This document shows, piece by piece, positions 21,219 through 37,370 of a stretch of 64,000 nucleotides of DNA (within the stretch, counting starts at the first letter, position 1; each line of letters begins with the position of its first letter). The DNA comes from Alphaproteobacteria bacterium. GTDB lineage: Bacteria > Pseudomonadota > Alphaproteobacteria > UBA828. A program made the position numbers and the translations under genes. Location of the stretch: positions 160,001-224,000 of the forward strand of contig CAXXVO010000012.1 in NCBI GenBank assembly GCA_963422645.2, written 5' to 3'. Under the pieces are notes generated by a model. That model had not been told where the DNA came from. It saw nothing but the letters and a program-made list of their open reading frames with translations, and searched no databases.

Positions 21219-22326
21219 CAATGGCATTCACTTAGCGGTTTTCGACTGTTCACTTAAGGAGTCGTGTTCTTGCGCTGTCGGTTGCGTGCGTTTCTGTCGT
21301 TCAGGTGTTCAGGCGACGGCCCGCTTTGCGCGTGCCCACTTGCCGCGGGGTTTGCGCGACCTGCGTTCGCAGGACCGGCCGGGGCGCGGGCGCTGACGCG
21401 CCTGGTTGATGCAGGAGAGGACATGGCTGAGGGTTTCGGCGACCATCGCCGTATGGCGCAGCAGCAGCGCTTCGAGGTTGCGCGCGACGGTGGCGAGGCC
21501 GTTGCTGAAGTTGGCTTTCATCGCCGGCTTGCCGTCGGCAGGGCGCTCGGCGTCGAGGCTTGCGTTGCTGCGGTTGGTGAAGAGCCGGGTCATGGCGATG
21601 AGGTTGAAGTGGGCGAAGAGCTCCTGGCGGACGCCGCGCTCGGTCTGGCTGTGGAAGGCCTCGACGGCCATGGCCTGTTTCGAGGTCTTGTAGAGTTCCT
21701 CGATTCCCCAGCGCGCGTGATAGAGCTCGGCCAGTTCCGCGACGCTCCAGGCCTTGGGGTCGAGGAGGGTGGTGGCGAGGATGAAGACCGTGCTGCCGGT
21801 GCGGTAGCGGACCAGTCGCAGGCGCAGCGGGGTGGCGTCGACGTGCGGCGTCTTGCGGCGCAGCTTTCTCAGGGTGTCCTTTCCGGGAGCGACGGTGATC
21901 GGCGCGTCCGTGCGGCCGTCGGCGATGAAGGCGCTCATCGAGGGCGGCGCCTGCCTTCTTCTTGATCCGGAACACGGGGTGCAGGCCGCGGGCGACATGG
22001 GCGTGCAGCATCTCCCAAGAGTAGTAGCCGCGGTCATAGACCACGATGTCGTTGGCCGAGAGCGCCTTGAGGTGGGCGAGGGCGGCCCTTCTTTCGTCGC
22101 CGTGCGCGACCAGGTCGAAGTCCACCGGGATGTTCGCGTGCAGCCGGTAGAGGCAACTCAGCAGGCCCTGCGGGTAGTGGGCCGCCTCGGAGGGCGTGCG
22201 GTAGCCGGCCTTGAGCAGCGGCCGCGGCAGGTTGAGCTTGGAGCCGTCGACCGCGAACACGCGGTGGCCCTTCCAGGCCGGGCCGTCGGCGCGCTTGAGG
22301 ATCTCGGCGTGCAGCGTCTTGATCAC
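21219..22326 (-). mobile_element. truncated, frameshifted IS4-family element
   Basis: VFAVDGSKL, VYDRGY, YHARWGIEELYK split over two frames (shift near 21935); end sequence CAATGGCATTCACTTA; 5' part missing. Confidence 0.82.
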
Positions 22327-23874: not shown

Positions 23875-23974
23875 CTCAGACTTCCTGACCTCTGCTGATT
23901 TTAGGTGACACGAGCCGCGCGGATTCCGAGGCCCCGTCGATGTCGTAGACTATGCGCAGACGGGTGCCGGGGAA
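23875..23974 (-). mobile_element. ISNCY-like element copy A, terminal piece
   Basis: Matches 32203-32302 including the IR CTCAGACTTCCTGACCTC. Confidence 0.9.
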
Positions 23975-24073
23975 TGAGCGTGCGCCCAGCATTTGATGGT
24001 GCGGTTTTCGGATTATTTGATGTTCGTGATGCGGCGCTTGGTTGATCTGCGAGAGCGGTGAGTGGCCTGGCTT

Positions 24074-24943
24074 TCATCGAGACCGCAGGAGCATCTCGTT
24101 CCAGTCCTTGGCGTGTCGTGGGCGCAACCTTTTCACCCTTGGATCGTTGAGCACGAGATGCTCGGCGGCAGTGTCGCCGGCGCTGTCTGCGTCGTAGGCA
24201 CAGACGATGCGACGTGGCTTCCACTCCTTGATCCAGGGCGGGACCGAGCTGGCGATGCCGGCGGTTGAGGCGACGACGGCGCCGTTCTCGCGCGTCCCCT
24301 CGACGCGCAGGCTTCGTGCAGAGATGGCGTCGACGGCGCTCTCGGTGAGGATGACGAGGGCGGGCTGGTTTCGGTCGCAGTGGAGCCAGAAGCCGCCACG
24401 CGCCTTGCGCGATCCCGGGGCCATGCCCCTGAAGCGTTTTGTTCCGGGCTGCGGCGCGGTGCCGAGGATCTCGGCGCCGGTCGTGTGCCCGCTGGCGTTT
24501 CGGCAGATGAAGACGGCGTTGATCCTGTCATCGGCGTAGAGGAGGCCTCGGCCGTGGCAGGCTTCGAGCACGTCGGTGCCGATAGCGCGTTGGCGGATGA
24601 GGGCGTCCCGGACCCTGGGCCAGGCGCGGGGACTGGGCCTTGGCAGCCGCAGGCGTCGCGGGGCGGCTGGGATGGTGGTGATCTCCCTCCGCCCCTCATG
24701 GCTTCCGAGGAAGCGGAGGGCTTCCGGGAAGCGGCATCCCGTCGCATGGATGACGAGGTCGATGGCGCCACCCCCTCCCGTGCCGCGCAGGTGATCGAAG
24801 AACTTCTCGCCGTTGATGCTGATGACCGAGCCCCCGCGCTTGAAGCGCGCCCGGTCGGTCGGGTCTCTGCGGTAGCCGAGGGCGGCGGCGACCCGGTCGA
24901 GGGGGATGTTGCGGCAGGTGGCCAGGGGATCGCCGCCGCTCAT
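24074..24943 (-). CDS. DUF3991/Toprim primase-like protein
   Basis: FFDH...GGGGAIDLV N-domain; ILTESAVDAIS, CAYDADSAG, KDWNEML Toprim motifs. Confidence 0.82.
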   Translation of the reverse strand: MSGGDPLATCRNIPLDRVAAALGYRRDPTDRARFKRGGSVISINGEKFFDHLRGTGGGGAIDLVIHATGCRFPEALRFLGSHEGRREITTIPAAPRRLRLPRPSPRAWPRVRDALIRQRAIGTDVLEACHGRGLLYADDRINAVFICRNASGHTTGAEILGTAPQPGTKRFRGMAPGSRKARGGFWLHCDRNQPALVILTESAVDAISARSLRVEGTRENGAVVASTAGIASSVPPWIKEWKPRRIVCAYDADSAGDTAAEHLVLNDPRVKRLRPRHAKDWNEMLLRSR

Positions 24944-24986
24944 TGCCGGGTCCCGGCGAAGGTCTGCTTGGAAGGGAGGCTGACGG

Positions 24987-25043
24987 CGTTCCCGTTCCTG
25001 TACCCTTCAACGCTTAAGAGTTCCGGGAACGGGAACGGGAACG
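24987..25043. repeat. inverted GGGAAC hexamer array (candidate iteron origin)
   Basis: GTTCCC-GTTCC (24988-24998), AT-richer spacer, GTTCC, then GGGAAC x3 (25025-25042). Confidence 0.7.
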
Positions 25044-25045
25044 CC

Positions 25046-26044
25046 TCATCCCGCACTTCCGTTGATGGCGGCAGGGGATTGCGGCTCCCGGTGCGCCTCG
25101 GCGGCTGCGAGGCGATAGCCACCCCTGGGCGCCCGTTCGATGCGCCCCTCCCTGGTGAGGCTCTCGATGGCGGCAACGACGGTGGCGTTGCGGGCAGCGG
25201 CGCGTGAGCGGATCTGGGCTTTCGAGAGCGGCTTTTCGGCCTGCTCGATCGCCTTGAAGACGCGCTGCTCGACGGTGGCGGGCTCGTGCCTGTCTTCATC
25301 TGCCGCGTCCTGGTGCAGACGGAAGGCCGGCCCATGTCCGCCGTCGACGAGTTCCAGCTCGATGTCGTTGAGGCCCCGGGCGTCGCGCTGCTCGACCGTC
25401 ATGACGATCTTCTTGTCGCGCCGGCGCAGGTACAGATTTGAGTCACCCCAAGCGTGCAGCTCGCTGCTCCCGCGCAGGGCCTGCCCCGGCCGGGTGCCGC
25501 CGCTCTTGCGGGCGTGGTGGACGAGGAGGACGGCGGTTTCGAAGCGGCGCTGCAGTTCGCGCAGGAAGCCGAGGATGGGGGCGATCTCTGCGACGGCGTT
25601 CTCGTCGACGCTGTGCAGGCGGACCAGGGGATCGAGGATCAGGAGGCGCGGTTCGATGCGCTCCACGGTCTCCTGCAGGCGCTGACGGTCGATGCGCTGG
25701 TCGAGACGCAGGGTGGGCACGTCGATGACGGCGATGTCGAGTTCGTCGAAGGGGGTGGCGGCGGCGCGGGCGATCCCCTGCAGACGCTTGCGCACCCTGT
25801 GGCCGGCGTCCTCGGCGGCGAAGAGCAGCACGGTGCCGCTTGCGCTGGGGCGGTAGTGGCGCAGGCATGGGACGCCGGTGGCCACGGCGACGGCGAGATC
25901 GAGCGCGAGCAGGGATTTGCCGCACTTGGGCTCGCCGCCGACGATGCCCACGGCCTGCTCGGCCCACAGCGTGTCCACCATCCACTGTTGCGCCCGGGGG
26001 CGATCCTCGAGCTGCATCGGCGCCCGTGTCGGGAAGCCCTTCAC
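25046..26044 (-). CDS. AAA_25 / RepA-like RecA-fold helicase with C-terminal wHTH
   Basis: GGEPKCGKS Walker A, AEDA, LILDPL Walker B, LVHHARK, LRGSS; GTGA-coupled to the upstream ATPase. Confidence 0.85.
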   Translation of the reverse strand: MKGFPTRAPMQLEDRPRAQQWMVDTLWAEQAVGIVGGEPKCGKSLLALDLAVAVATGVPCLRHYRPSASGTVLLFAAEDAGHRVRKRLQGIARAAATPFDELDIAVIDVPTLRLDQRIDRQRLQETVERIEPRLLILDPLVRLHSVDENAVAEIAPILGFLRELQRRFETAVLLVHHARKSGGTRPGQALRGSSELHAWGDSNLYLRRRDKKIVMTVEQRDARGLNDIELELVDGGHGPAFRLHQDAADEDRHEPATVEQRVFKAIEQAEKPLSKAQIRSRAAARNATVVAAIESLTREGRIERAPRGGYRLAAAEAHREPQSPAAINGSAG

Positions 26045-26874
26045 CGCCGTGCCCTCTTCGGCTTGGCGGGCTCGCCCAGGATCTCCATGAAGAGCTTCTC
26101 GTCGAGAACCTCGCGGTTCTTCTCGGCGCCGGCGGCGAGCAGCATGTCGCCCATGACGGTAAGCGCCCTGGGGTTGCCGCCGGCGTGGGTGACCAGGGTG
26201 TCCTTGAGCTCTGCGCTCATGAGGCCCGGATTGCCGGCCTGCTCGACCAGATGGTCGAGCAGGGCCGCGAGGTCGCCGGCGTCTGCCTGGGTCATGACCA
26301 GGCGCTGGCGCAGGCGCGAGGCGATGGGCTGCAAGTCGGGCTGGCGGAGCCTGTCGATCAGGCGGCTGTCGCCGGCGAAGACGACCGAGAGGATGGCGCG
26401 CGAGTCGAAGTCGGTGGACGCCAGCAGGCGGATCTCGGAGATCACCGAGGGCAGCAGCTCCTGGGCCTCGTCGATGAGCACCACGGGCCGCATGCGGGTG
26501 TCGTCGACATGGGTGAGCCATCGCTCGCGCAGGTTTTTGAAGCTGGCCCAGCGGTTGTTGTACATCAGGTCGACGCCGAACATCCCGCCGATCTCGCGGT
26601 AGAAGTCGGACAGCCTGGAAGAGGGGTGGGTGATGGCACAGACCCTGAGCCCGTCCGAGCGGCCGAGGCGGTCGGCGAGCACGCGCAACGCCACGCTCTT
26701 TCCGGTGCCGGGCTCGCCGGCGATCAACGCGAAGCCGCCCTGGCGCACAAGATGATGCTCGATTCTGAGGCAGAAGCTGTCGACGGCGGGGCTCACCATG
26801 AGGCTGTCGACCGGAAGGTCGGTGGCGAAGGGGTTCCATTTGAGCCCGTAGAAGGTGAGCAGCTCGCGGTTCAT
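26041..26874 (-). CDS. ExeA-type AAA+ ATPase (transposition helper)
   Basis: FYGLKWNPF, GEPGTGKS, LIDEAQ, IASR, GGNPR. Confidence 0.9.
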   Translation of the reverse strand: MNRELLTFYGLKWNPFATDLPVDSLMVSPAVDSFCLRIEHHLVRQGGFALIAGEPGTGKSVALRVLADRLGRSDGLRVCAITHPSSRLSDFYREIGGMFGVDLMYNNRWASFKNLRERWLTHVDDTRMRPVVLIDEAQELLPSVISEIRLLASTDFDSRAILSVVFAGDSRLIDRLRQPDLQPIASRLRQRLVMTQADAGDLAALLDHLVEQAGNPGLMSAELKDTLVTHAGGNPRALTVMGDMLLAAGAEKNREVLDEKLFMEILGEPAKPKRARR

Positions 26875-28346
26875 GACGGATCTCCCTGATCGTCGTCCTC
26901 GCCCGGACCGGGCGTCTTGTTATGGGGTACCCAGGCCGGCGGCAGGCCTGTTGCGGCCTGGGCGTCGAGCACGCCCTTGAGCAGCGGCGGAAGTTCGCCG
27001 ACGCCCGCGCTGGCGCCGCCATGGTCGCTGCCGGGTCTCGCAGGACGGCGGACGCCATCGGCGTTGCCGCGCTTGTCGAGGGGGTACAGCGTGCACAGCC
27101 GCTCGCCGCTTCGGCCTTCCACCAGATCGACGCCGCTGAGGTCCCAGCGCGCATAGCGGACCCAGAGCGTCCTCAGGTGGCGCCACGGCTGTGGCACCTG
27201 GTAGCGGATGCCCTCGACCGAGACGGTGCCGTCCGAGCGCCTGAGCGTGCGCTTCCTGGCGATGCGGAAGGCCGCCTTGAGCTCGTCCGAGGCGGGGCAG
27301 GGCCTCGATGCCTTGACGCTCCCGGCGAGGCGTTCATGCGGCGTCATGCCGAGCTCGCGGTGCACCCGCCGATGGTAGTCCTGCTCCAGCCAGGCTATGG
27401 TGGCGTCGTTGAGCATCTTCAGGGTGAGCGCGTCGACGCCTTCGAGCTGAGCCATCAGGCGGCCCTCGACCGTGCCCCAGAACGACTCGATTTTTCCATT
27501 TTGATGGGGGCTGTAAGCGAGTGTCGTGGCCCCCACGATGCCGAGGCGGTGCAAGCCCTCCTCGACCTCGCCCGCCGTCATCGGCCCGCCGTTGTCGGTC
27601 AGCAGGGACCTGGGCAAGTCCCTCTTCATGAAGGCCTGACAGAGCCCGTGGACGAAGACCTCGGCGGTCTCCTCCAGGTACCACTGCAGGTGGCAGCCAA
27701 GCCTGGAGTGGTCGTCGAGGAAGCCGAGCAGGATGGGCGTCTGCCATTCGCCCGACGCCGTCAGCACGCGGCGCTTGCCGTGGTGGAAGTCCCCGTGCCA
27801 CAGCGCGTGACTGCGAGACACCTCGTAGCTAAGGACCTCGCGGGCTTCGACCGCCGGCTTGTCCTCACCCTCGTGCCACTTCCTGGGGCGCTCGCGCACC
27901 AGGCCGCGATTGCGCATCGCCCGCGTCAGCGTCGCGTAGGACGGCATCGGGCCGAGCTCGGGATGGGTCGCAACATGAGCCTTGAGGGTCTCGTAGTGGA
28001 GCTGCGCCGCCCACGAGGGATGGACCCGGTACTGCTCGCGCAGCGCCGCGATCAGCCCCGCCGACATGGACCGCTCGCGGCCGACGTCGGTCCGAGGCTT
28101 CCGGCGCAGCGCCTTGACCGGGTCCTGCTCCTCTGCCCGCGCCCGGTAGTACCAGCGCTCGATCGTCGAGGCCGCAAAGCGCACCGGCCCCTTGCCCGAC
28201 GGGTGCTCCCAGTCGCGCTGCGACAGACGCTCGAACTCGGCCCCCAGCTGGCCTGCAGGCGGCGGTGAAGCCAGAAGCGGCCCCACCACCGCAAAGCGCA
28301 GCCGGGCCCACTTCTCGCGCCTGGCGCCCGCGTCGTCCTTGTCCAT
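26871..28346 (-). CDS. DDE integrase/transposase (rve core with Mu-transposase-like C-terminus)
   Basis: WHGDFHH, LDDHSR, LTDNG, NGKIESF; YHRRVHRELGMTP; DGTVSVEGIRYQV. Confidence 0.92.
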   Translation of the reverse strand: MDKDDAGARREKWARLRFAVVGPLLASPPPAGQLGAEFERLSQRDWEHPSGKGPVRFAASTIERWYYRARAEEQDPVKALRRKPRTDVGRERSMSAGLIAALREQYRVHPSWAAQLHYETLKAHVATHPELGPMPSYATLTRAMRNRGLVRERPRKWHEGEDKPAVEAREVLSYEVSRSHALWHGDFHHGKRRVLTASGEWQTPILLGFLDDHSRLGCHLQWYLEETAEVFVHGLCQAFMKRDLPRSLLTDNGGPMTAGEVEEGLHRLGIVGATTLAYSPHQNGKIESFWGTVEGRLMAQLEGVDALTLKMLNDATIAWLEQDYHRRVHRELGMTPHERLAGSVKASRPCPASDELKAAFRIARKRTLRRSDGTVSVEGIRYQVPQPWRHLRTLWVRYARWDLSGVDLVEGRSGERLCTLYPLDKRGNADGVRRPARPGSDHGGASAGVGELPPLLKGVLDAQAATGLPPAWVPHNKTPGPGEDDDQGDPS

Positions 28347-28395
28347 TCCGGCATCCCTCCCTCGCCGCATCGGAGAGATGCCCATGTAGAACGCC

Positions 28396-29013
28396 CTATC
28401 CGGGCGTGACAGGAACACTTTCTGCGGGCGGCGCCGAGCCATCGCCGAGCCCGCAATAGCCCGTCCACGGCTTGAACCAGATCAGGCTCAGGAACAGACG
28501 CTCACCGAAGCGTCCGCCCCGCATCTGCCGCAGCACGAAGAGCAGCGGCACCTCCTCGGGTGGCATCACCAGTTCGCCACGCTTCGCTCCCCAGGGCTCC
28601 GTCGCCGGGAACGCCTCCAGCCACCACTTCCGCCAGCGGCGCAGTGTGGCGACCGAGACCCCCCACTTCCGCTTGATCGTCTGCAACCGCACCCCGCCTC
28701 TCAGAACCAGTGCACTCAACAGAACGAACAGGGCGCCCAGATAAAAGCGGCGCCCGAAGAATCGTACCGATGGTGGGGTCGCTCGCAGGCGGCAATCCGC
28801 GCAGCAGAAGCTGAACCGCCGCGTGCCCTCTTCCCTCAACTCGGCTGCCAGACCGTACGGCTTGCGCGGATACGTCGCGCTGTGCAGCTTGCCGGGGCAG
28901 TGTCGGCAGCCCGCCTCGCGGCAGCGCGCCGCCTCGGCCTCATCGACCTCGCGCAGCCAGGCCCAGACCAGGGCGTTGCAAAGCATGGAGTGGCGGAAAA
29001 TGTTGTGCGACAT
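28396..29013 (-). CDS. Zn-binding/HTH accessory protein (DUF6431-like)
   Basis: CRHC...FSFCCADCR...PPSVRFFGRR, SVATLRRWRKWW; first gene of the element. Confidence 0.6.
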   Translation of the reverse strand: MSHNIFRHSMLCNALVWAWLREVDEAEAARCREAGCRHCPGKLHSATYPRKPYGLAAELREEGTRRFSFCCADCRLRATPPSVRFFGRRFYLGALFVLLSALVLRGGVRLQTIKRKWGVSVATLRRWRKWWLEAFPATEPWGAKRGELVMPPEEVPLLFVLRQMRGGRFGERLFLSLIWFKPWTGYCGLGDGSAPPAESVPVTPG

Positions 29014-29061
29014 TGGGGCCGTCTCTGGCGATTGTGACCGTCACCACGAGACAAAGCCCCC

Positions 29062-29086
29062 CGGCGAACTTCTTGCAAGTTCGCCG
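29062..29086. promoter_or_regulatory. perfect 10-bp inverted repeat upstream of the transposon operon
   Basis: CGGCGAACTT-cttgc-AAGTTCGCCG. Confidence 0.5.
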
Positions 29087-29163
29087 AGGGGCACCCGCCC
29101 CAAAACCTCAACAAATCCGAGCGGATCAGGCCCCGATCCCCGCTGAAAGACCGCGCGCGCTCA

Positions 29164-29413
29164 GGGAAGACCGTTTCGGTGGCGTTCAGGTCGCTCAGAA
29201 CCGCATCGATCCAACGGTCGCAGGCGTCGTTTGCGAGGCCAAGAATGTGGACCCGCAGGAGGCCATTGCCAGGATCCGGCAGGATGTCGGCATCGGCGGT
29301 GAGCAGCGCTTGAAGCAGTTTCCGGGGATGGGGCTTGTGGCCCTGCGCCTGCATGACGGGAAGCATCATGCGGGTTTCGGCGCGGTAGGCGATCATCCGG
29401 ATGACGTCGAGGA
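29164..29413 (-). pseudogene. ISNCY-like copy A transposase fragment
   Basis: Matches 32298-32547; ends where the Mu-like terminus begins. Confidence 0.9.
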
Positions 29414-29490
29414 TGTAGACGGACGAAAGTCGTTGTGAATCGGGTCAAGGGGTGGAATCAGGCGGAATCGGGCGGAAGGTGGCGGAATCT
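29414..29490 (+). mobile_element. orphan Mu-like terminus
   Basis: TGTAGACGGACGAAAGTCGTTGTGAATC vs TGTAGGGGGACGAAAGTCATTGCGAATC at 2347; cut by IS21. Confidence 0.8.
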
Positions 29491-29692: not shown

Positions 29693-30421
29693 TCAGGAGC
29701 GGTTCTTGAAGCGCCAGCTCTCGTTGCCGGTCTCGATGATCTCGCAATGATGGGTGAGGCGATCGAGCAGCGCTGTGGTCATCTTGGGGTCGCCGAAGAC
29801 GGATGGCCATTCGCCGAAGGCGAGGTTTGTGGTGATGACGATCGAGGTGCGCTCGTAGAGCCGGCTCATCAGATGGAAGAGCAGCTGCCCACCGGCCTGG
29901 GCGAAGGGCAGGTAGCCGAGCTCGTCGAGGATGACGAAGTCGCGGCGGACGAGCTGGTCTGCAGTGCGGCCCTGGCGTCCGGCGCGAAGCTCGGCCTCGA
30001 GGAGGTTGACCAGGTCGACGACGTTGTAGCACCGGCCGCGCGCGCCCTTGCGGATGCAGGACCGCGCGATGGCGACGGCGAGATGGGTCTTGCCGGTACC
30101 GGTGCCGCCGACCAGCACGATGTTGCGTTTGCCCTCGAGGAAGCCGCCGCCGGCGAGCTCCTGGATCAGGGGCTCGTTGACCGGCGAGGCGGCGAAGTCG
30201 AAGTCGGCCAGCTCCTTGACCGTCGGCAGCTTGGCGGAGGCCATCTGGTACTTGATCGAGCGGGCCCTCTTGTCGGCGATCTCGACCTGCAGCAGCGTAC
30301 CGATGATCTGTTGCACCGGATGGCGGCGCTTGAGCCCGTCGGCAAGGATGTCGTCGTAAGCGGCGCGCATACCTGCGAGCTTCAGCTGGGTCATCATCTC
30401 CAGCACATCATGACGCTCCAT
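29693..30421 (-). CDS. istB: IS21 helper ATPase
   Basis: [30 protein letters not shown]. Confidence 0.95.
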
Positions 30422-31922
30422 GACCGGCCTCCCTCAGGCTGTCGTAGCGCTGACAGTCGGCTACCGGCTTGTGGCGAAGCTGCAGGCCCTCGGGCGTCGG
30501 GATGATTGCCGGCGGTGCCGGCTGGCGCTGCCGGGCGAGGATGTTGAGCACCACGTCGGCGCTGCAGGCACCGCAGTCGAGCGTCTCGGCACAGGCCGCC
30601 TCAACCGCCTCCAGTCCGTCCTCCAGCACCGCCGCGAGCACCTTGACGAACTGCCGGTCGCCGTCGTCGTGGCCCGCGAGCCGGGTTCGCAGGCGGCCGA
30701 GCGCGTTGGGCAACTGCCAGTCCTTGAAGGGCGCGCCATTGCGTAGCGCGCCGGGCTTCCGCGTCAGGATCGGCACGTAATGCCACGGATCGTAGACGAA
30801 CCGGCCGCGCCCGAAGCTGCGGGGGTGCTCGGCAACGGTCTCGCCGTCCTGGCGGATGACGATCCGATCGGCATAGGCCCGCACGTCCACCGGCCGGCCG
30901 ACGGCGCGGGCCGCGACGCTGTACTGGTTGTTGTCGAAGCGCACCAGACAGGTCTTCGAGACCGACACCTCGCTGGCATGGAAGCCGTCGAAGGGGCCGC
31001 GATACGCCATCAGGAAGGGCTGCTCCTCCTCGAACACCTGCCACACCGTCTTGCCCGGGATTGTCGGATGCGGATGCTTCTTGGCGTCCTCGATGCACCG
31101 ATCCATCAGCCACTCGTTGATCTCGGCGTAGGAGCGGCCCCGCGGGATGGGCACGAACAGGCGGCCGCGAAGGTCACCCACCTGCTTCTCGACCTGCCCC
31201 TTCTCCCAGCCAGCCCCTGGCGTGCACGCCACAGGCTCCACCAGATGGTGCGAGCACAGCTCCTGGAAGCGGCGGTTGTAGTCCCGCTTCTTGCCCACGA
31301 AGATCGTGCTCACCGCCGTCTTCATGTTGTCGTAGATGCCCCGCCGGCAGACCCCGCCGAAGAAGCGGAAGGCACGCTCGTGCGCCTCGAAGACCATCTC
31401 CTGGCTCTCGCGGGGAAAGATCTGGACCAGATACATCCGGCTGTGGCACAGCCGCATGTGCGCCGCCTTCACCCTGGTCGTCGCGCCCGACAGACGCGCG
31501 TACTCGTGGCTCCAGTCGAACTGGTAGGCCTCGCCGGGATCGAAGATCAGCGGCACATAGGCCTGCGCCGGCGACAACAGCCGCCACCGGCGCCGCCAGG
31601 CCCTGGCATAGCGGCGAACCGCGTCATAGCCGCCCTTGTAGCCCAGCGACACAAGGTCTTCATGAATCCGCAGAAGAGACAGCCGATCCTTGCGTGCCTT
31701 CTTCTCGTTGGCCTTCAGCTGGCGCTCAAGCTCCTCCACCCACAGCCCAAGCTTCGGCATCGGCTGGATCTTGCGCTCGTAGCTGTGCGAGGTCGCATCG
31801 CCCCGCACCACCTTGCGTATCGTGTTCTTGGAAACCCTCAAATCCCGGGCGAGCTTCTTGATCGGAACGCCCTTCACCAGATGATCCCGACGGATCTTCG
31901 CGATCGTTTCCACAACCAGCAT
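30408..31922 (-). CDS. istA: IS21 transposase
   Basis: [25 protein letters not shown]. Confidence 0.95.
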
Positions 31923-32041
31923 CTCCCCCACCACCCCGTCCGTCCAAACGACGAGGTGTGTTCATGGACACAAATCCAAGGGGGTCAATTTTGGACGCCG
32001 ATCACCCCCAATAGGGGGTCACTTTTCCACGCTTAACAACA

Positions 32042-32202: not shown

Positions 32203-34717
32203 CTCAGACTTCCTGACCTCTGCTGATTTTAGGTGACACGAGCCGCGCGGATTCCGAGGCCCCGTCGATGTCGTAGACTATGCGCAGACGGGTGCCGGGG
32301 AAGACCGTTTCGGTGGCGTTCAGGTCGCTCAGAACCGCATCGATCCAACGGTCGCAGGCGTCGTTTGCGAGGCCAAGAATGTGGACCCGCAGGAGGCCAT
32401 TGCCAGGATCCGGCAGGATGTCGGCATCGGCGGTGAGCAGCGCTTGAAGCAGTTTCCGGGGATGGGGCTTGTGGCCCTGCGCCTGCATGACGGGAAGCAT
32501 CATGCGGGTTTCGGCGCGGTAGGCGATCATCCGGATGACGTCGAGGAGGAGGCGCTCGCGCGCGGGCAAGGCATCGAGCTGCTCGGCTTCGTCGAGGTCG
32601 CCGGCCCGGCAGTGCTTGGGCGTCTCCCTGCGGCTGGCCCTGACGATGTCGCGGACATCCTGGAGGTCCCTGACTTCCCTCCTGAGTTCCGCCGTCGGCT
32701 GCTTCTTCCGGGCCGTGTCGGCGATGCGGTTGCGCAGGCGGCCAAGCTGGCGGTCGAGGCGATGGATTGCCTTGTCATAGGCCCGCCGCAGCGGGTTGAC
32801 GACCATGGCGGCGGGATCGAGAGGCTCGAGCTCGTGGGTCGGCAGGGCGTCGAGATTGAACTCGTCACGCATGTACTTGAAGAAGTTCTCCTGCGACCAG
32901 CGCGAGAACATGGCGCCCGCAACCTCAGCCATCGGCTTGTGCGGATCGGTGGTGATCAGCGGCACCTGACGGCCGTTGTCGAGCAGGCGGCGGATCTGGC
33001 GCACCCTGAAGCCGTTCGGCAACGTCACCGGCTTCTCAGCCAGCCGCATGGTGGCGCTGCCGTCCGCCGCCGGTCCGTGAATGGGAACGGTCATCGCGCC
33101 GAAGTCCTCGGCCGGCCAGTCCTCGCCCCTGAAGTTCTTGTGCCAGGTCAGGCAGGCGACGCCGCGCCTCGCCAGCCGGCGGAACAGATCCGGGCTCCAG
33201 CCCTCGCGGTCGAAGACCAGGGTGAGCGCCGGCTGGCCGGGATGCTCGGCGGTCAGGTCCGGCGCCCCGGCGCCAACGATCCCAAGCTCCTGCAGCGCCG
33301 GCACCACGTCGGCTTCGATGGCCGCGACCATCTTCGGGTCCAGCGGCTTGTGCAGACAGAGCAGCGGCTTGCCGCCCAGAGCGTTGATCCAGTAGCTGGC
33401 GCTCGCCGGCAGGCACAGCTTCTCGCGCGAGACGAAGTGCTTGGGCAAGCGCCCCTTGCGGCCGGAGTAGACCTTGACGTGCCCGTCGATGGCCAGCGTC
33501 GCCCAGAGCTCCGGCTCGTCGGCCTGCCAGCGCCTGGCAAGGGCGAGCTGCCACGCCCGCACGCCGGCCTCGTCGTCGGCGATGAGAGCGATCTTGCGGC
33601 GCAGCGTCTTGACCTCGGGGCAGCGATCGAGGCCGAGAATGGCGCCCCATTCGCCCGGCGCCTGGTAGCGCAGGCTCTCGGGGTTGCGCACCCGCGCCAA
33701 GGTCATGAAGGCCAGGAAGAGCAGGATCGTAGGCAAGCCGTAATAGCCCTTCGGCAGCAATGGCAGGAGACCGGTCTCGGAGAGAAGACCTTCCTTCAGC
33801 AGGGCCGGCAGGGCGGCGAGCACGCCGCCGAAGCGGACACCGCGGGCGGCGGCGGCGAACTGCGGTTCGACCGGCCCCGCCTGTCCACAACTGGCCAGAA
33901 CCCGAGCCGGAACATCGCAAGTCGCACGCCCCATCGGCGCCTGCCGGTCCCGCCGATCGCGCGCGCTGCGATCCGTTTGCGGCTGCGCTTCCAGCCCCGG
34001 CGCCGTCTCCGGCCCCGGGGCACCGGTACTCTCTTCATCGACACGGCCTTCAGGAGCCGCACCCGCGTCAGGCGGCGCAGCCAGCGCTGAGCGTCCGGGC
34101 TCCCCATCCGCCTCCGTGTTGCCGATCAGTCCCTGACGGCGCCACTTGTTGACCGATGGCGCTGACACGCCGAGAACCCGGGCCGCCGCAGAGCCGCTCA
34201 GGCCCGATGCCAGCAACGCCGTCGCCTTCTCCGCCAACTCCGGAGTGAACACCGACGGCCCGCGACCGCGCCGGGGCTTCATGAACCCCGCTTCGCCCTC
34301 GGCCAGGTAGCGCCGTCGTGCGCGCTGCACCGTCGCGCGCGAGACAGCGAAAGCGTCAGCCAGTTCCTGCGGCGAGACCGCGCTGATCGCCGCGAGGCGG
34401 CCGATCCGCAAGAGCATGGCCGTGCGGTCATCGGCGGCGTGGCTGTCAAAGGGAATGAGGTTGGAAAAGTAGGTGAAGGTGTCGTCCGAGATCAGGACGG
34501 CGAAGCAGCTGTTGCCGATCGAGACCGCCTCTGGAGGGCACATTGGGAGGGTACTGGGCATGGTTGAGACCGTGCAATTGGTATCAAATTATAATATCAG
34601 ACCTCGGGCGCGACACCCAGCGAAAAACCGCCTGAAACAACCGAAATGTATCAGAATTCAAGGAGTTCCCGGCACGCTGCCCAGAACAGCCAGCATCACG
34701 AGGTCAGGAAGTCTGAG
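32203..34717 (-). mobile_element. ISNCY-like element copy B (complete)
   Basis: Perfect 18-bp IRs CTCAGACTTCCTGACCTC (32203-32220, 34700-34717); no target duplication seen. Confidence 0.88.
32204..34561 (-). CDS. large DDE transposase with N-terminal HTHs (785 aa)
   Basis: AIDGH, VFDREG, RWSQENFFK; stop codon lies in the IR. Confidence 0.85.
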   Translation of the reverse strand: MPSTLPMCPPEAVSIGNSCFAVLISDDTFTYFSNLIPFDSHAADDRTAMLLRIGRLAAISAVSPQELADAFAVSRATVQRARRRYLAEGEAGFMKPRRGRGPSVFTPELAEKATALLASGLSGSAAARVLGVSAPSVNKWRRQGLIGNTEADGEPGRSALAAPPDAGAAPEGRVDEESTGAPGPETAPGLEAQPQTDRSARDRRDRQAPMGRATCDVPARVLASCGQAGPVEPQFAAAARGVRFGGVLAALPALLKEGLLSETGLLPLLPKGYYGLPTILLFLAFMTLARVRNPESLRYQAPGEWGAILGLDRCPEVKTLRRKIALIADDEAGVRAWQLALARRWQADEPELWATLAIDGHVKVYSGRKGRLPKHFVSREKLCLPASASYWINALGGKPLLCLHKPLDPKMVAAIEADVVPALQELGIVGAGAPDLTAEHPGQPALTLVFDREGWSPDLFRRLARRGVACLTWHKNFRGEDWPAEDFGAMTVPIHGPAADGSATMRLAEKPVTLPNGFRVRQIRRLLDNGRQVPLITTDPHKPMAEVAGAMFSRWSQENFFKYMRDEFNLDALPTHELEPLDPAAMVVNPLRRAYDKAIHRLDRQLGRLRNRIADTARKKQPTAELRREVRDLQDVRDIVRASRRETPKHCRAGDLDEAEQLDALPARERLLLDVIRMIAYRAETRMMLPVMQAQGHKPHPRKLLQALLTADADILPDPGNGLLRVHILGLANDACDRWIDAVLSDLNATETVFPGTRLRIVYDIDGASESARLVSPKISRGQEV

Positions 34718-35169: not shown

Positions 35170-36708
35170 TCAGGAGCGCAGTATAGGGATCAGCTGCATC
35201 GGTTCCGGGTGCGCCAGGATTTGCAGGATGTTCCAGCCTTGCTTTCGAGCGGTGACGATGACGCTGCGCATTCCGGCGAAGTTGCAGGCGCCTTGCAGGG
35301 AGCGGAAGCCGCCTGAGATCTTCTCATGCACTTTGTTCATACGGATGTCACGCTCCGCCTCGTTATTCGTGAACGGCGTGCGCAGGTCGGTGAGGAAGCG
35401 CAGGCAGCCCTCCTTATGCTTTTGAAGGCGGCGCGCGAGGTTGTGGCCGATGCGGCGTTTCTTTCGCCCTCGCTTTGCGATCTGGAGCGGCGGTTGGGCC
35501 TCATGGAAGGCGATGGCTTCTTCGAGGATACGGTCCCATGCCCTTGAGATGCGGGCCACCAGGGAGGCGGGGACTTGACGGTCTTTCTCACGGGCGAAGC
35601 GGGCGGCCCTGCGCGCGCGCTGAAGCAGGCGGTGCATGCTCGCCGCCCATTCCTCCTTCTCGATGTCGATCAGGGCCTGGAGTTCGCGCAGGTGATGTGC
35701 GTTGCAGGCGCCGTGGCGGACGCCCTTGATGGTGAAGTAGGGGGCGAAGTCGTCGTGGACGAGGATGCCTTTCAGGTTCTTTTCGACATCGCCGCGTCCC
35801 TCGCCGATGCGCAGGACGGTGAGCAACGGGGTGCACAGCACATGGAGCCAGCGGGTACGGGCGGCGATACGCAGGCCGGTCTCGTCGAGGTGCTTGACCG
35901 GCGCCTGCGTGCGGATCAGATCGGCGACATGGTCGAGGAAGCCCTCGAAGCGCTGCGCTGTGCGCCGGCCCATGGCGGCGATCGTGGCAGTGGAGATGGA
36001 CACCGCGAAGATGTCGCTCATGAGTTCGGCCAGACGCTTCTCGGGCACGAACTGGGCGTACAGCAGGTAACTCACCCAAGCGGTGATGCGAGGGCCGTAC
36101 TGGACCGGGGCGGTGACGCCCGGCGGGAAGGCGGCTCGTGTCAGCGTGCCGCATGCGCCGCAGAGGCAGCGATGGGCGCGGTGTTCGGTGACCTCGAGAG
36201 GCTGCGGCTCGGGTACGTCGAAGACCTGCCGACAGGCGGGCGCGCCTTGCCGGTCGGCGTCCGAGAGCTCGACGCCACAGCCGGAACAGGTGGAGGGGTG
36301 GTGATCGACGACACGGTCCGGGCTGTCGCTCCGCGCGAGGGTGGTTCCCTTGTGGCCGGGCTGGCCGCCACTGGGCCCGCCGGACTTTCCGCGCTGGCTT
36401 TGGGTGCGCCTCTGGGCTCCGCTTTTCTTCTTGAGCCCGTCGCTGGCGGGGGGCTTGCTGCTTGTGGTGCTGTTGAGGGCCGCGCTGCGCTCGAGTTCGG
36501 CGATGCGCTCGCGCAGGGCCGCGTTCTCCTGCTCGAGTGCGGCATTTTCCCGGGCGAGCGCGGTGGCTGATCGCAGCAGCCCCTGCCCCCATTCCCGGAC
36601 GGCAACGACGACAGTGGTTGCGAGGGATGATGGCTCGAGAAGCTCCTTCAGGCAGCAGAAGGCCTCGTTACGGGCGGCGAGGTCTTCGTGCCAGTGCGAC
36701 ACCGTCAC
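35170..36708 (-). CDS. IS66 transposase TnpC
   Basis: NSTTSSKPPASD, GGQPGHKG, CxxC, QVFDVP, HLDETG, CNAHHLREL, TNNEAERDIR. Confidence 0.93.
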   Translation of the reverse strand: MTVSHWHEDLAARNEAFCCLKELLEPSSLATTVVVAVREWGQGLLRSATALARENAALEQENAALRERIAELERSAALNSTTSSKPPASDGLKKKSGAQRRTQSQRGKSGGPSGGQPGHKGTTLARSDSPDRVVDHHPSTCSGCGVELSDADRQGAPACRQVFDVPEPQPLEVTEHRAHRCLCGACGTLTRAAFPPGVTAPVQYGPRITAWVSYLLYAQFVPEKRLAELMSDIFAVSISTATIAAMGRRTAQRFEGFLDHVADLIRTQAPVKHLDETGLRIAARTRWLHVLCTPLLTVLRIGEGRGDVEKNLKGILVHDDFAPYFTIKGVRHGACNAHHLRELQALIDIEKEEWAASMHRLLQRARRAARFAREKDRQVPASLVARISRAWDRILEEAIAFHEAQPPLQIAKRGRKKRRIGHNLARRLQKHKEGCLRFLTDLRTPFTNNEAERDIRMNKVHEKISGGFRSLQGACNFAGMRSVIVTARKQGWNILQILAHPEPMQLIPILRS

Positions 36709-37370
36709 GTGTCTTCGGCCTCGACGGCCATCATGGCGGCGAGCACGGCGAGGCGTTCGCCCGGCGGCAAGGCCTGGTAGCGCCGGCCCCAGTTGGCTGC
36801 CTTGCGCTTGATGCGCTGGCGGTCGGTGAAGTTCCGGCCTGCGTGGCTGGCCCAATGCATCCGGTCGGGGGCGTAGTTGAACCAGACGACCTCGGTTCGC
36901 ACCAGACCCTGGGTCGTGACCTGCAGCGCCAGCCGGCGCCATCCCGCCAGCACCTCGTCATAGAGCGCCGACGGATGGCCCGAGATCATGACCTGGCAGG
37001 GCAGAGCCTTGAGCAGCGCGAGAAGCGCGACGTGGCCGGCCTCCTCGTACTCGAAGCGGTAGCGCTGCGCCGAGCGGCGGGTCGCGTGCAGATAGGGCGG
37101 ATCGCTGTAAACCAGCTCCGGGCCCAGGAACGGGAACGAGGCCAGGAAGTCATGGGCACAGCCGTGAACCAGATCGACCGGGTAGTCGCAGACGAAGGCC
37201 TCGAGCGCCTGCGCATCGCGGTCGATGCCGATCGAACGCACGGCCGGCGGCTTGCGCTTCATCAGCGCCCCGCCCCCAAGGTGGCTTTCGATGTAGACGG
37301 AGTGCGGCGGCATCAGCGCAATCAGCGCTTGGCACAGACCTGCTGTCGCCTTCGAGCCGAAATACCCCAT
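36705..37370 (-). CDS. small DNA adenine methyltransferase (Dam/D12-like)
   Basis: YFGSK, YIESHLGGG SAM-binding motif, GID, VYSDPPY catalytic motif. Confidence 0.88.
   Translation of the reverse strand: MGYFGSKATAGLCQALIALMPPHSVYIESHLGGGALMKRKPPAVRSIGIDRDAQALEAFVCDYPVDLVHGCAHDFLASFPFLGPELVYSDPPYLHATRRSAQRYRFEYEEAGHVALLALLKALPCQVMISGHPSALYDEVLAGWRRLALQVTTQGLVRTEVVWFNYAPDRMHWASHAGRNFTDRQRIKRKAANWGRRYQALPPGERLAVLAAMMAVEAEDT

Follow-up and report, generated by a model that had tools for sequence, protein, structure and literature searches.

Structure and boundaries of the element

The window analysed here is the whole 64,000-nucleotide stretch of DNA, to which all positions refer. At 23975-29163, it carries an element of 5,189 bp (5.2 kb) with five genes, together with the following features:

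23970..23974, no strand: left GGGAA, 5-bp target-site duplication
23975..23985, plus strand: primase-side terminal inverted repeat, TGAGCGTGCGC
23991..24022, plus strand: subterminal direct repeat ATTTGATG, in two copies 24 bp apart
24074..24943, minus strand: predicted primase, 289 aa, zinc-less ZBD-like N-terminus followed by DUF3991 and Toprim_2 (Pfam)
24985..25045, minus strand: hairpin (palindrome) right after the helicase stop, three GTTCCC-type hexamers per arm, 19-nt loop
25046..26044, minus strand: predicted helicase, 332 aa, GTG start, AAA_25 RecA-type core (E 3e-36) and C-terminal winged-helix-like tail
26041..26874, minus strand: predicted AAA+ ATPase of the MuB/TnsC type, 277 aa (AAA_22, E 6e-19)
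26871..28346 (ORF open up to 28442), minus strand: predicted DDE transposase, 491 aa from M33 (rve, rve_3 and HTH_32 in Pfam)
28396..29013, minus strand: Zn-ribbon and HTH protein, 205 aa, DUF6431-like (HTH_23, E 0.0018)
29153..29163, plus strand: zf-side terminal inverted repeat, GCGCGCGCTCA
29164..29168, no strand: right GGGAA, 5-bp target-site duplication
32203..32547, no strand: target-site twin without an insertion, within the intact IS of 2.5 kb (32203-34717)

The exact boundaries, the TG...CA ends, the 11-bp imperfect inverted repeats and the GGGAA duplication, all proposed in an earlier sequence-only reading, were borne out, as were the five co-oriented genes (all on the minus strand, with Pfam support) and the ATGA and GTGA start/stop overlaps. 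Indeed, the termini read TGAGCG...CGCTCA, the inverted repeat matches at 10 of its 11 positions, and the TGAGCG terminus is also kept in relatives of the element. The subterminal ATTTGATG repeats are putative transposase-binding sites, and Tn6049 as well as relatives of the element have similar xTGATG motifs at their ends. When the flanks of the element are joined, they form 345 bp with 100% identity to 32203-32547, and therefore the empty site is present in the window itself. In addition, the empty-site joint (23969 to 29164) was bridged by Logan contigs from three of four runs. The target IS, at about 32203-34717, carries a 785-aa PF21804 Transposase_29 gene and has 74 matches longer than 2.4 kb in the host genome. 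The same reading had placed the insertion in a duplicated IS, which is correct for the intact twin (32203-34717) and needs amending for the interrupted copy, a 345-bp remnant (23875-23974 and 29169-29413) and not a whole IS.

Core transposition genes

Domain and profile comparisons showed that the predicted core set opens with a Zn-ribbon/HTH protein, continues with a DDE transposase of the rve type and closes with an AAA+ target-DNA ATPase of the MuB/TnsC type. In the Zn-ribbon/HTH protein, the residues C36, C39, C70, C71 and C74 are invariant and HTH_23 was detected in 20 of 27 family members; its link to DUF6431 comes from an Atlas search lead and from the RefSeq name of the equivalent gene in distant relatives, with a Pfam match to DUF6431 in only one of the 27 members (E 0.074). 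Homologues of the transposase begin at M33 (position 28346), and its catalytic residues D186, D251 and E287 are invariant. The best curated match of the transposase was NCBIfam IS481 (NF033577; E 9e-34, 117.3 bits, cut-off 224), and RefSeq labels the Tn6049 transposase as IS481 too; membership of the IS481 family was rejected, as this score lies below the cut-off and the element has five genes in 5.2 kb against a single-gene IS of ~1 kb. The IS21 model matched weakly (37 bits, cut-off 160), the Mu-transposase C-terminal domain (Mu-transpos_C) was not detected in the transposase by Pfam, and an hhalign comparison of the transposase family with the Mu-type transposase of the window (30408-31934) returned a probability of 0.5%. 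Note that the AF2 model of the transposase has a mean pLDDT of 54 with an unfolded catalytic core, and that its residues 361-420 form a confident beta-strand block. For the ATPase, a profile of 24 sequences matched MuB (8xvb, E 2.9e-7) and ShCAST TnsC (7m99, E 3.3e-3).

A helicase and a hairpin in the fourth gene position

The fourth gene position (slot 4) was shown by homology to hold a probable RepA(RSF1010)-like hexameric helicase with a winged-helix tail. Its AAA_25 score reaches 125 bits for a cut-off of 27 in Pfam, RepA of RSF1010 (1g8y) was matched with an E-value of 8e-9 in the PDB search, and 21 helicase sequences show no variation in the Walker A, Walker B, DEN, HHxRK and GQxLRGS motifs. 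The helicase gene overlaps the ATPase gene by GTGA, which points to translational coupling, and it lies directly 3' of the ATPase gene in 56 of 83 rows, most of the others being contigs that end too early. This synteny is kept in relatives down to ~50% transposase identity and the gene occurs in three major transposase clades. Over 32 loci, the pairwise identities of transposase and helicase are correlated with r=0.90 (Mantel 0/999), compared with 0.95 for the core ATPase. Since the helicase keeps the same position in relatives and co-diverges with the transposase, its status as a core gene in the lineage of this element, rather than random cargo, is supported. The helicase search of 72,556 plasmids gave only two weak matches. 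The complex prediction for ATPase and helicase returned a score of 0.00 ('no answer') and bears on neither side.

The hexamer-periodic hairpin behind the helicase gene was found in 23 of 31 helicase-bearing loci versus 1 of 11 small-protein loci. RNAalifold on 18 loci gave 17 pairs, six of them with compensatory changes, which would also be expected for a double-stranded palindromic protein-binding site. No Rfam family matched the hairpin in a scan of the element, which gave only chance miRNA matches far below the gathering scores.

An optional primase gene

The last gene of the element scored above the Pfam cut-offs for both Toprim_2 (37.4 bits, cut-off 22.1) and DUF3991 (41.6 bits, cut-off 24.5), and the modelled protein (AF2, pLDDT 87) is predicted to have a DnaG/T7-gp4-type primase fold. 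Foldseek returned 39 matches with E<=0.001, led by DnaG of Aquifex, Twinkle, the primase of T7 gp4 and the core of E. coli DnaG, with T4 gp61 also among the leading matches. The acidic Toprim residues E201, D205 and D251 do not vary. In the model, the first 80 residues adopt a ZBD-like fold (Foldseek rank 47, 1d0q), and no invariant Cys of a CHC2 zinc-binding domain was present in this region of the family alignment.

The primase gene forms a clean ~960-bp optional module with a patchy occurrence inside the closest clade, and a sub-lineage to which this copy belongs has gained it. Its relatives are the last gene in eight rve+AAA_22 loci lacking the helicase and in 29 IS21-like loci with ParB-like, IstA and IstB genes, and those outside transposons are primase domains fused to MobV relaxases. 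The primases of the Tn6049-like lineage and of the second rve/AAA_22 lineage share one clade. In all, three transposon architectures have taken up a related primase at this position.

Placement in the Tn6049 family

The transposase shares 49.8% identity over 93% of its length (residues 10-467 of 491, E 2e-130) with the Tn6049 transposase of the pHS87a and CH34 plasmids, and we assign the element to the Tn6049 family on this homology. The sequence-only reading knew of no described transposon family with such a gene set; this view has to be abandoned, given the transposase identity and the same gene order in Tn6049 (PMC2864759, PMC4739549). Indeed, Tn6049 (Cupriavidus metallidurans CH34 and the P. 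aeruginosa plasmid pHS87a) has the order Zn-ribbon/HTH, DDE transposase and GspA/ExeA-like AAA ATPase, and both transposons duplicate 4-5 bp of their target, end in short and imperfect repeats and carry CATCAA-type motifs in subterminal positions. Both are also multi-copy in their hosts: the available parts of the published descriptions give a 12-bp IR and a 4-bp DR for Tn6049 (PMC4739549) and 12 copies of it in CH34 (PMC2864759). In these parts of the Tn6049 literature (PMC2864759 and PMC4739549 among it), a helicase- or primase-bearing form is not mentioned. Our literature search, covering mostly openly accessible journals and without the 2009 paper that named Tn6049, retrieved no transposon of such a design. 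Tn6049 has been named, yet never studied mechanistically so far. What is new here is the genome copy number, the core helicase, the conserved hairpin, the SSB-tail-like slot-4 protein, the optional primase, the presence of primases in two other transposon types and the movement of a copy whose primase gene is disrupted by an IS.

The two transposons differ in size and in slot 4: Tn6049 is 3.5 kb long and has a small protein in this position, whereas the 5.2-kb element has the helicase, the hairpin and the primase. The small protein of Tn6049 has about 64-90 aa and an acidic C-terminus ending in ...DF/PF. All 12 small slot-4 proteins compared end in acidic residues followed by F (nine of them in P-F), a C-terminus resembling the SSB tail DDDIPF, whose protein partners are known. 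An Atlas search with the small protein retrieved unnamed clusters only. Relatives with four genes (no primase) are multi-copy, with eight identical copies in one genome, as are relatives with three genes and the small protein (no helicase).

Likeness to other mobile and replication systems

Like the element, Mu, Tn7 and Tn552/Tn5053 combine an rve-fold DDE enzyme with a MuB/TnsC-type ATPase, terminate in TG...CA, duplicate 5 bp of target and have asymmetric ends that contain subterminal repeats. These systems depend on host replication proteins, in the case of Mu through the PriA restart pathway; unlike them, the element encodes its own putative helicase and primase and has no detected Mu C-terminal domain, TnsA-like nuclease, TniQ or resolvase. 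In IS21, too, the DDE transposase comes with an AAA+ helper (IstA/IstB), but the ATPase of the element is AAA_22/MuB-like and not IstB/DnaC-like.

On the replication side, RSF1010 (IncQ) has a host-independent helicase/primase pair. Its RepA is the match of our helicase, and its RepB' primase is fused to the MobA relaxase, while the primase family of the element is kin to Mob-fused primase domains. However, the RepB' fold differs from the Toprim/DnaG-type fold of the element's primase, and the element has neither a RepC-type initiator nor a relaxase and keeps these genes inside a DDE transposon. T7 gp4 and Twinkle have primase domains that align with our primase model, and their RecA-type hexameric-helicase core is also found in our helicase. 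The helicase and primase would amount to a split gp4-like pair, although each is encoded by a gene of its own, the gene order is reversed, the primase has no zinc-binding cysteines and sequence identity is no more than 14-20%.

Copies in the host genome and mobility

The host genome (5.9 Mb) contains eight full-length copies of the 5,189-bp element with at least 99.8% identity, plus ~35 partial matches; overall, the element is present in about twenty copies (19-29 assembled copies per position). Such a recurrence of the same 5,189 bp is far beyond chance. The 5-bp duplications occur at this copy and in relatives, and five of the eight full copies have no target duplication; the missing duplications fit replicative intramolecular events and, equally well, recombination between copies. 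One copy has a 1.76-kb IS inserted in its primase gene, and this split copy was found at at least two further sites, one of them with a perfect 5-bp duplication. The ~20 intact copies could provide the primase in trans to the disrupted one. These results support a single mobile unit of all five genes between exact ends, and the element appears to be an active, multi-copy DDE transposon of the Tn6049 family. Note that the MAG labels cover many phyla, although the binning of repeats is unreliable.

In run X17, the word depth of the element was about 345-500 against 20 for the unique flank, an excess similar in magnitude to the 19-29 copies assembled at each position, even if depth is not a copy number and carries no weight here. 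The Logan contigs of this run also contain a lone single-contig skip of 5,591 bases (23898 to 29490).

A putative element-encoded primosome

The reading that we favour, with a confidence of about one half, is that an element-encoded primosome serves replicative transposition. The helicase would load at or near the hairpin and would form with the primase an element-encoded primosome, which would start DNA synthesis on a branched transposition intermediate, be it a strand-transfer fork of the Mu type or an intermediate of the copy-out kind. A primosome acting there would lead to replicative transposition with less need of host restart by PriA/DnaB/DnaC/DnaG. Given the undetected Mu C-terminal domain and the IS481-like match below the cut-off, Mu-type and copy-out mechanisms are both compatible. 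In Tn6049 proper, the small slot-4 protein may instead recruit host SSB-binding replication proteins. Against this reading, neither the helicase nor the primase is essential to the Tn6049 family, as four-gene forms and Tn6049 spread without the primase or without the helicase, and the copy with the split primase gene has moved as well. Cointegrates would also have to be resolved without a resolvase or a TnsA-like nuclease of the element's own.

More tentatively, at somewhat less than an even chance, bacterial DDE and AAA+ transposons may follow a hitherto unrecognised principle and ensure replisome assembly on their transposition intermediate via a dedicated accessory slot, filled by an SSB-tail mimic that would hijack host restart proteins (Tn6049), by a RepA-like helicase with a loading hairpin, or by a helicase and a DnaG-like primase, the primases having been recruited separately by IS21-like and Tn6049-like/rve-AAA_22 lineages. 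If so, the five-gene form would be a transposon with a complete private primosome, whose replicative transposition would not need PriA/DnaB/DnaC/DnaG of the host and could work in widely differing hosts, which would explain the spread of such elements.

To our knowledge, phage Mu is the only case in which the hand-over from transpososome to replisome is understood, and there it uses the PriA restart pathway of the host. A compact, five-gene and naturally very active transposon that codes for a helicase and a primase and offers a candidate loading site would bring this hand-over within reach of tests with a handful of proteins. In addition, bacterial DDE elements would join the short list of transposons carrying replication enzymes, which as far as we know comprises Casposons, Polintons and Helitrons. 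The SSB-tail-like protein of Tn6049, together with the IS21-like and rve/AAA_22 elements that bear a primase, suggests a recurring design and not one oddity.

Alternative roles of the helicase and primase

Instead of copying, the helicase and primase may be involved in target choice or repair, e.g., in sensing or binding forks or single-stranded DNA, as TnsE of Tn7 does in target choice, or in filling or priming the 5-nt gaps left after conservative insertion. The core ATPase is of the target-DNA activator type, slot 4 is exchangeable with a tiny SSB-tail-like protein that could equally be a fork-targeting adaptor, and the primase is dispensable in cis. We nevertheless consider this role unlikely, since all catalytic motifs of the RecA-type helicase and of the Toprim primase are invariant and would be superfluous in a mere adaptor, and since the repair of 5-nt gaps requires no primase.

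Less likely still is a self-replicating episome, the bolder of the two options in the sequence-only reading. An excised circle with the hairpin as origin would then be maintained or amplified by helicase and primase like a mini-IncQ plasmid before reinsertion. The resemblance of the helicase to RSF1010 RepA, the kinship of the primase with plasmid relaxase-primases, and a winged-helix-like tail that could act as initiator on the adjoining iteron-like inverted hexamer array as origin would all suit such a circle. However, the element has no separate RepC-type initiator gene, and it combines Mu/Tn7-like TG...CA ends with a MuB/TnsC-type ATPase, a combination that we do not know to act through circles. 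Moreover, four- and three-gene relatives spread without the helicase-primase module, and the Logan contigs of the four runs show the empty-site joint and no end-to-end circle joint, although contigs drop rare forms and rare circles may escape them. The excised self-replicating circle thus found no support.

Very improbable, finally, is a passenger role unrelated to transposition (defence, counter-defence or remnants of a plasmid replicon once captured), which the patchy ~960-bp primase indel and the helicase-free Tn6049 proper would allow, but against which stand the co-divergence of the helicase with the transposase almost as tight as that of the core ATPase, the GTGA coupling, the near absence of helicase relatives on sequenced plasmids and the related primases at the same position in three transposon architectures. 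Random cargo, named in the earlier reading among the outcomes that would overturn it, is at odds with the syntenic, co-diverging helicase.

Boundaries, gene content and family of the element

The element is a five-gene relative of Tn6049, and its main features in the window, together with the intact twin of its target, are as follows.

23975-29163: the element, 5,189 bp, five genes on the minus strand, ends TGAGCGTGCGC (start) and GCGCGCGCTCA (finish), inverted repeat matching at 10 of 11 positions
25046-26044, minus strand: helicase (AAA_25) gene
24985-25045, minus strand: hairpin
24074-24943, minus strand: primase (DUF3991-Toprim) gene, 289 aa
32203-34717: IS of 2.5 kb, twin of the target, with a 785-aa PF21804 (Transposase_29) gene and 74 genome matches longer than 2.4 kb

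GGGAA is present on either flank, and the flanks fused with a single GGGAA give 345 bp that match 32203-32547 at 100%, which is therefore an exact empty site within the window; in three of four public runs, contigs also span the 23969→29164 joint. The exact ends and the GGGAA duplication proposed by the sequence-only reading are thereby borne out. Its view of an insertion into a duplicated IS stands in part: the IS at 32203-34717 is real, but the interrupted copy is merely a 345-bp remnant of it. The five genes that it described are present (Zn-ribbon/HTH protein, rve transposase, AAA_22 ATPase, AAA_25 protein and DUF3991-Toprim protein), and the ATGA/GTGA gene overlaps are real; the transposase measures 491 aa, since its homologues begin at M33, and the AAA_25 gene starts with GTG. 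Note that the region is flanked by an IS66-family transposase gene (35170-36942, minus strand) and a DDE_Tnp_1 transposase gene (21301-22326, minus strand), and that a gene with an rve domain and a Mu-transposase C-terminal domain lies at 30408-31934 (minus strand).

The family, for which the same reading knew no described counterpart, already has a name, since, across 93% of its length, the transposase shares 49.8% identity with that of Tn6049 (pHS87a and CH34 replicons). Tn6049 was described as a 3.5-kb element with a gspA-like ATPase and 12 copies in CH34 (PMC2864759), and as having a 12-bp IR and a 4-bp DR (PMC4739549); excerpts of these and two other papers name the element and give no mechanism. 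On pHS87a, the Zn-ribbon protein is annotated as a 181-aa ‘transposase’, and the three genes after it as ‘IS481 family transposase’, ‘AAA family ATPase’ and hypothetical protein (90 aa). Our transposase reaches 117 bits against the curated NCBIfam IS481 model (cut-off 224) and is therefore not an IS481 member by NCBIfam. The ATPase family profile matched MuB (E 2.9e-7) and ShCAST TnsC (E 3.3e-3) in the PDB, so that the core pairs a DDE enzyme with a target activator of the MuB/TnsC type. Comparison of copies within genomes gave three size classes, i.e., 3.44 kb (without helicase), ~4.37 kb (four genes) and 5.16-5.19 kb (five genes), all with TGAGCG-type ends and most with 5-bp duplications. 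Farther relatives (28-30% identity) are found on plasmids of Streptomyces, Acidithiobacillus and Geobacillus; the gene upstream of the DDE gene is named ‘DUF6431’ in two RefSeq records and ‘transposase’ in Geobacillus, and of these records only that of Streptomyces has an annotated AAA ATPase.

The peptide ...ATGLPPAYLPK... is kept close to the C-terminal end of nearly all family transposases (L009-L090, surveyed loci). By analogy with TnsB and TnsC, in which the transposase C-terminus is a hook for the ATPase, this peptide could serve as such a hook.

The helicase and its hairpin

Judging from its distribution and co-divergence, the helicase is a core gene of the family and not cargo. Our survey comprised 83 rows (80 genome loci found with the transposase profile, two plasmid loci and the window). 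The AAA_25 gene directly follows the ATPase gene in 56 of them, so that relatives do not mostly lack it, as random cargo would imply; a small ORF takes its place in 12 (L082 among them), and the remaining rows mostly end too early for the fourth slot to be judged. In the transposase tree (quick IQ-TREE search on 68 distinct sequences, SH-aLRT support, midpoint root, careful search unfinished), helicase forms occur in all three major clades, and small-protein forms, Tn6049 included, are nested within one of them. Moreover, pairwise identities of transposase and helicase are correlated over 32 loci (r=0.90, Mantel 0/999), those of transposase and ATPase at r=0.95. Walker A, Walker B and the DEN, HHxRK and GQxLRGS motifs are invariant across 21 helicase sequences. 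The sole PDB sequence match was the RSF1010 replicative helicase RepA (E 8e-9), and 72,556 plasmid records yielded only two weak matches.

The helicase stop is followed immediately by a hairpin, with two or three tandem hexamers per arm (GTTCCC in the window element; CTTCCC, GTTTCC or GTTACC in relatives) and a loop of ~14-23 nt with a common CCCTACAG-like core. A crude criterion of 6-nt periodicity detects it at 23 of 31 helicase-bearing loci versus one of 11 small-protein loci, several of which (e.g., L042, L072, L089 and L090) carry plain G+C-rich terminator-like stems right behind the small gene. RNAalifold, run on the 18 of 25 listed hairpins with full arms, predicted 17 pairs, six of them with compensatory double changes, and an Rfam scan matched no family. 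Such conservation would be equally expected from a single-stranded DNA or RNA hairpin and from a duplex palindrome bound by a dimeric or hexameric protein. We regard the hairpin as a candidate loading or docking site for the winged-helix tail of the helicase. In a literature search that was incomplete, the helicase/hairpin/primase form of the Tn6049 family was not found in print, nor were the SSB-tail-like protein or the primase-bearing IS21-like and rve/AAA_22 elements described below.

An alternative occupant of the fourth slot

The small proteins of Tn6049 and its nearest relatives (n=12, 64-76 aa) share a PxLSDE...Y..Q.RRY core, and their genes follow that of the ATPase (L068:10283-10483, L089:5803-6018 and 10 other loci). 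The last residue is F in all 12, preceded by acidic residues, and nine end in P-F (...DEIPF, ...DELPSF, ...SDEPF; ...ADNDF in Tn6049). This terminus looks like the C-terminal tail of SSB (DDDIPF), to which PriA, the chi subunit, RecQ and further proteins bind. Provided that the resemblance is genuine, the fourth slot would serve the replication machinery in helicase and small-protein versions alike.

The primase and its relatives

The AlphaFold2 model of the primase (pLDDT 87) found as top Foldseek matches Aquifex DnaG, Twinkle, the T7 gp4 primase fragment, the E. coli DnaG core and T4 gp61. Its N-terminal domain is similar to the zinc-binding domain of primases but without the conserved cysteines, and E201, D205 and D251 are invariant. 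Relative to four-gene elements of the same clade, the gene is a clean ~960-bp indel, with the hairpin on one side and the terminal 48 bp of the element on the other. It is present in five of the 13 rows of the nearest clade, and individual lineages may have gained it; its divergence nevertheless runs in step with that of the transposase (80-82% vs 78-80%; 50% vs 63%), which favours an ancient presence followed by repeated loss. Many primase clusters (74-94% identical) lie on ~5.2-kb contigs.

The primase profile, run against metagenomes, returned 80 loci. The Tn6049-type helicase gene adjoins the primase in five (all five genes being visible in three), an unrelated IS21 lies nearby in two, and 36 are others, of which the four annotated are all MobV-relaxase/primase fusions. 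The remaining groups and these fusions are located as follows.

L103:778-4547, L098, L099, L101, L102, L109, L113 and L121 (8/80): second rve/AAA_22 lineage, distant IS481-like rve (~29% identical), primase immediately after the ATPase, no helicase
L115:902-4856 and 28 more metagenome loci within L116-L172 (29/80): IS21-like elements of ~5 kb on contigs of similar length, four genes (ParB/KorB-like protein, IstA, IstB, DUF3991-Toprim primase)
L146:5185-6927, L173:5200-6957, L151:2911-4794 and L136:4930-6675: MobV (Mob_Pre) relaxases of ~580-630 aa fused to the primase

The IstB of the IS21-like loci exceeds the cut-off of NF038214. The C-terminal domains of MobV relaxases are the closest non-transposon relatives of the primase, in agreement with the plasmid matches; a DUF6753 gene is close to three of the four fusions, and one fusion lies beside a T4 coupling protein. 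In a primase tree, built like the transposase tree by a quick search with a midpoint root, Tn6049-like primases group with those of the rve/AAA_22 loci in one clade (95); IS21-type primases form a separate clade (99) and relaxase-fused primases a third (99). Thus, DDE + AAA+ transposons have acquired related primases more than once.

A possible replicative mechanism

Sequence analysis establishes gene content, homologies, conservation, the cis element and copy number, and on this basis we propose that Mu/Tn7-like strand transfer, or possibly IS3/IS481-like copy-out, would produce a branched intermediate. The helicase would load on it, perhaps via the hairpin, the primase would prime the lagging or complementary strand, and host polymerase would then copy the element. 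Counting against this model, helicase and primase are each dispensable in relatives and a resolvase is absent; non-replicative roles of both proteins are possible but less likely. The same holds for a self-replicating episome, one of the two options that the sequence-only reading offered. Rare circles would not show in the contig data of the four public runs.

Copies in the host genome

The element is an active multi-copy unit. The host genome (5.9 Mb, 67% G+C), which is extremely rich in ISs, holds eight full-length copies with at least 99.8% identity and 35 partial matches, several of which are halves of copies broken by other ISs; the number of assembled copies over any element position is 19-29. 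A 5-bp duplication flanks the window copy (GGGAA) and, of the other copies that are full or can be reconstructed, two split ones (CAAGG, CCTGC); two copies show 4-bp flank matches. Five of the eight full copies have no duplication, a pattern that both recombination between copies and intramolecular replicative events could produce.

The genome also contains a natural primase knock-out. Two 6,957-bp composite copies (C11:80741-87697 and C18:61466-68422) are 100% identical and carry, at element position 462-465, a 1.76-kb IS that interrupts the primase gene and has 47 copies of its own in the genome. They lie in different flanking sequences, and a perfect 5-bp duplication surrounds the C18 copy; therefore, a copy without intact primase has moved. 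The same IS/primase junction occurs at a third locus (C13:129934-132381). The primase either acts in trans, which is conceivable because ~20 intact copies exist, or is dispensable.

At two further sites (C3:162385-166181 and C6:430794-436755), copies adjoin or interrupt one another, with truncated left ends arranged head-to-tail and one inverted copy terminating in another at position 1582. Protection against self-insertion thus seems weak, or else these arrangements are rearrangements.
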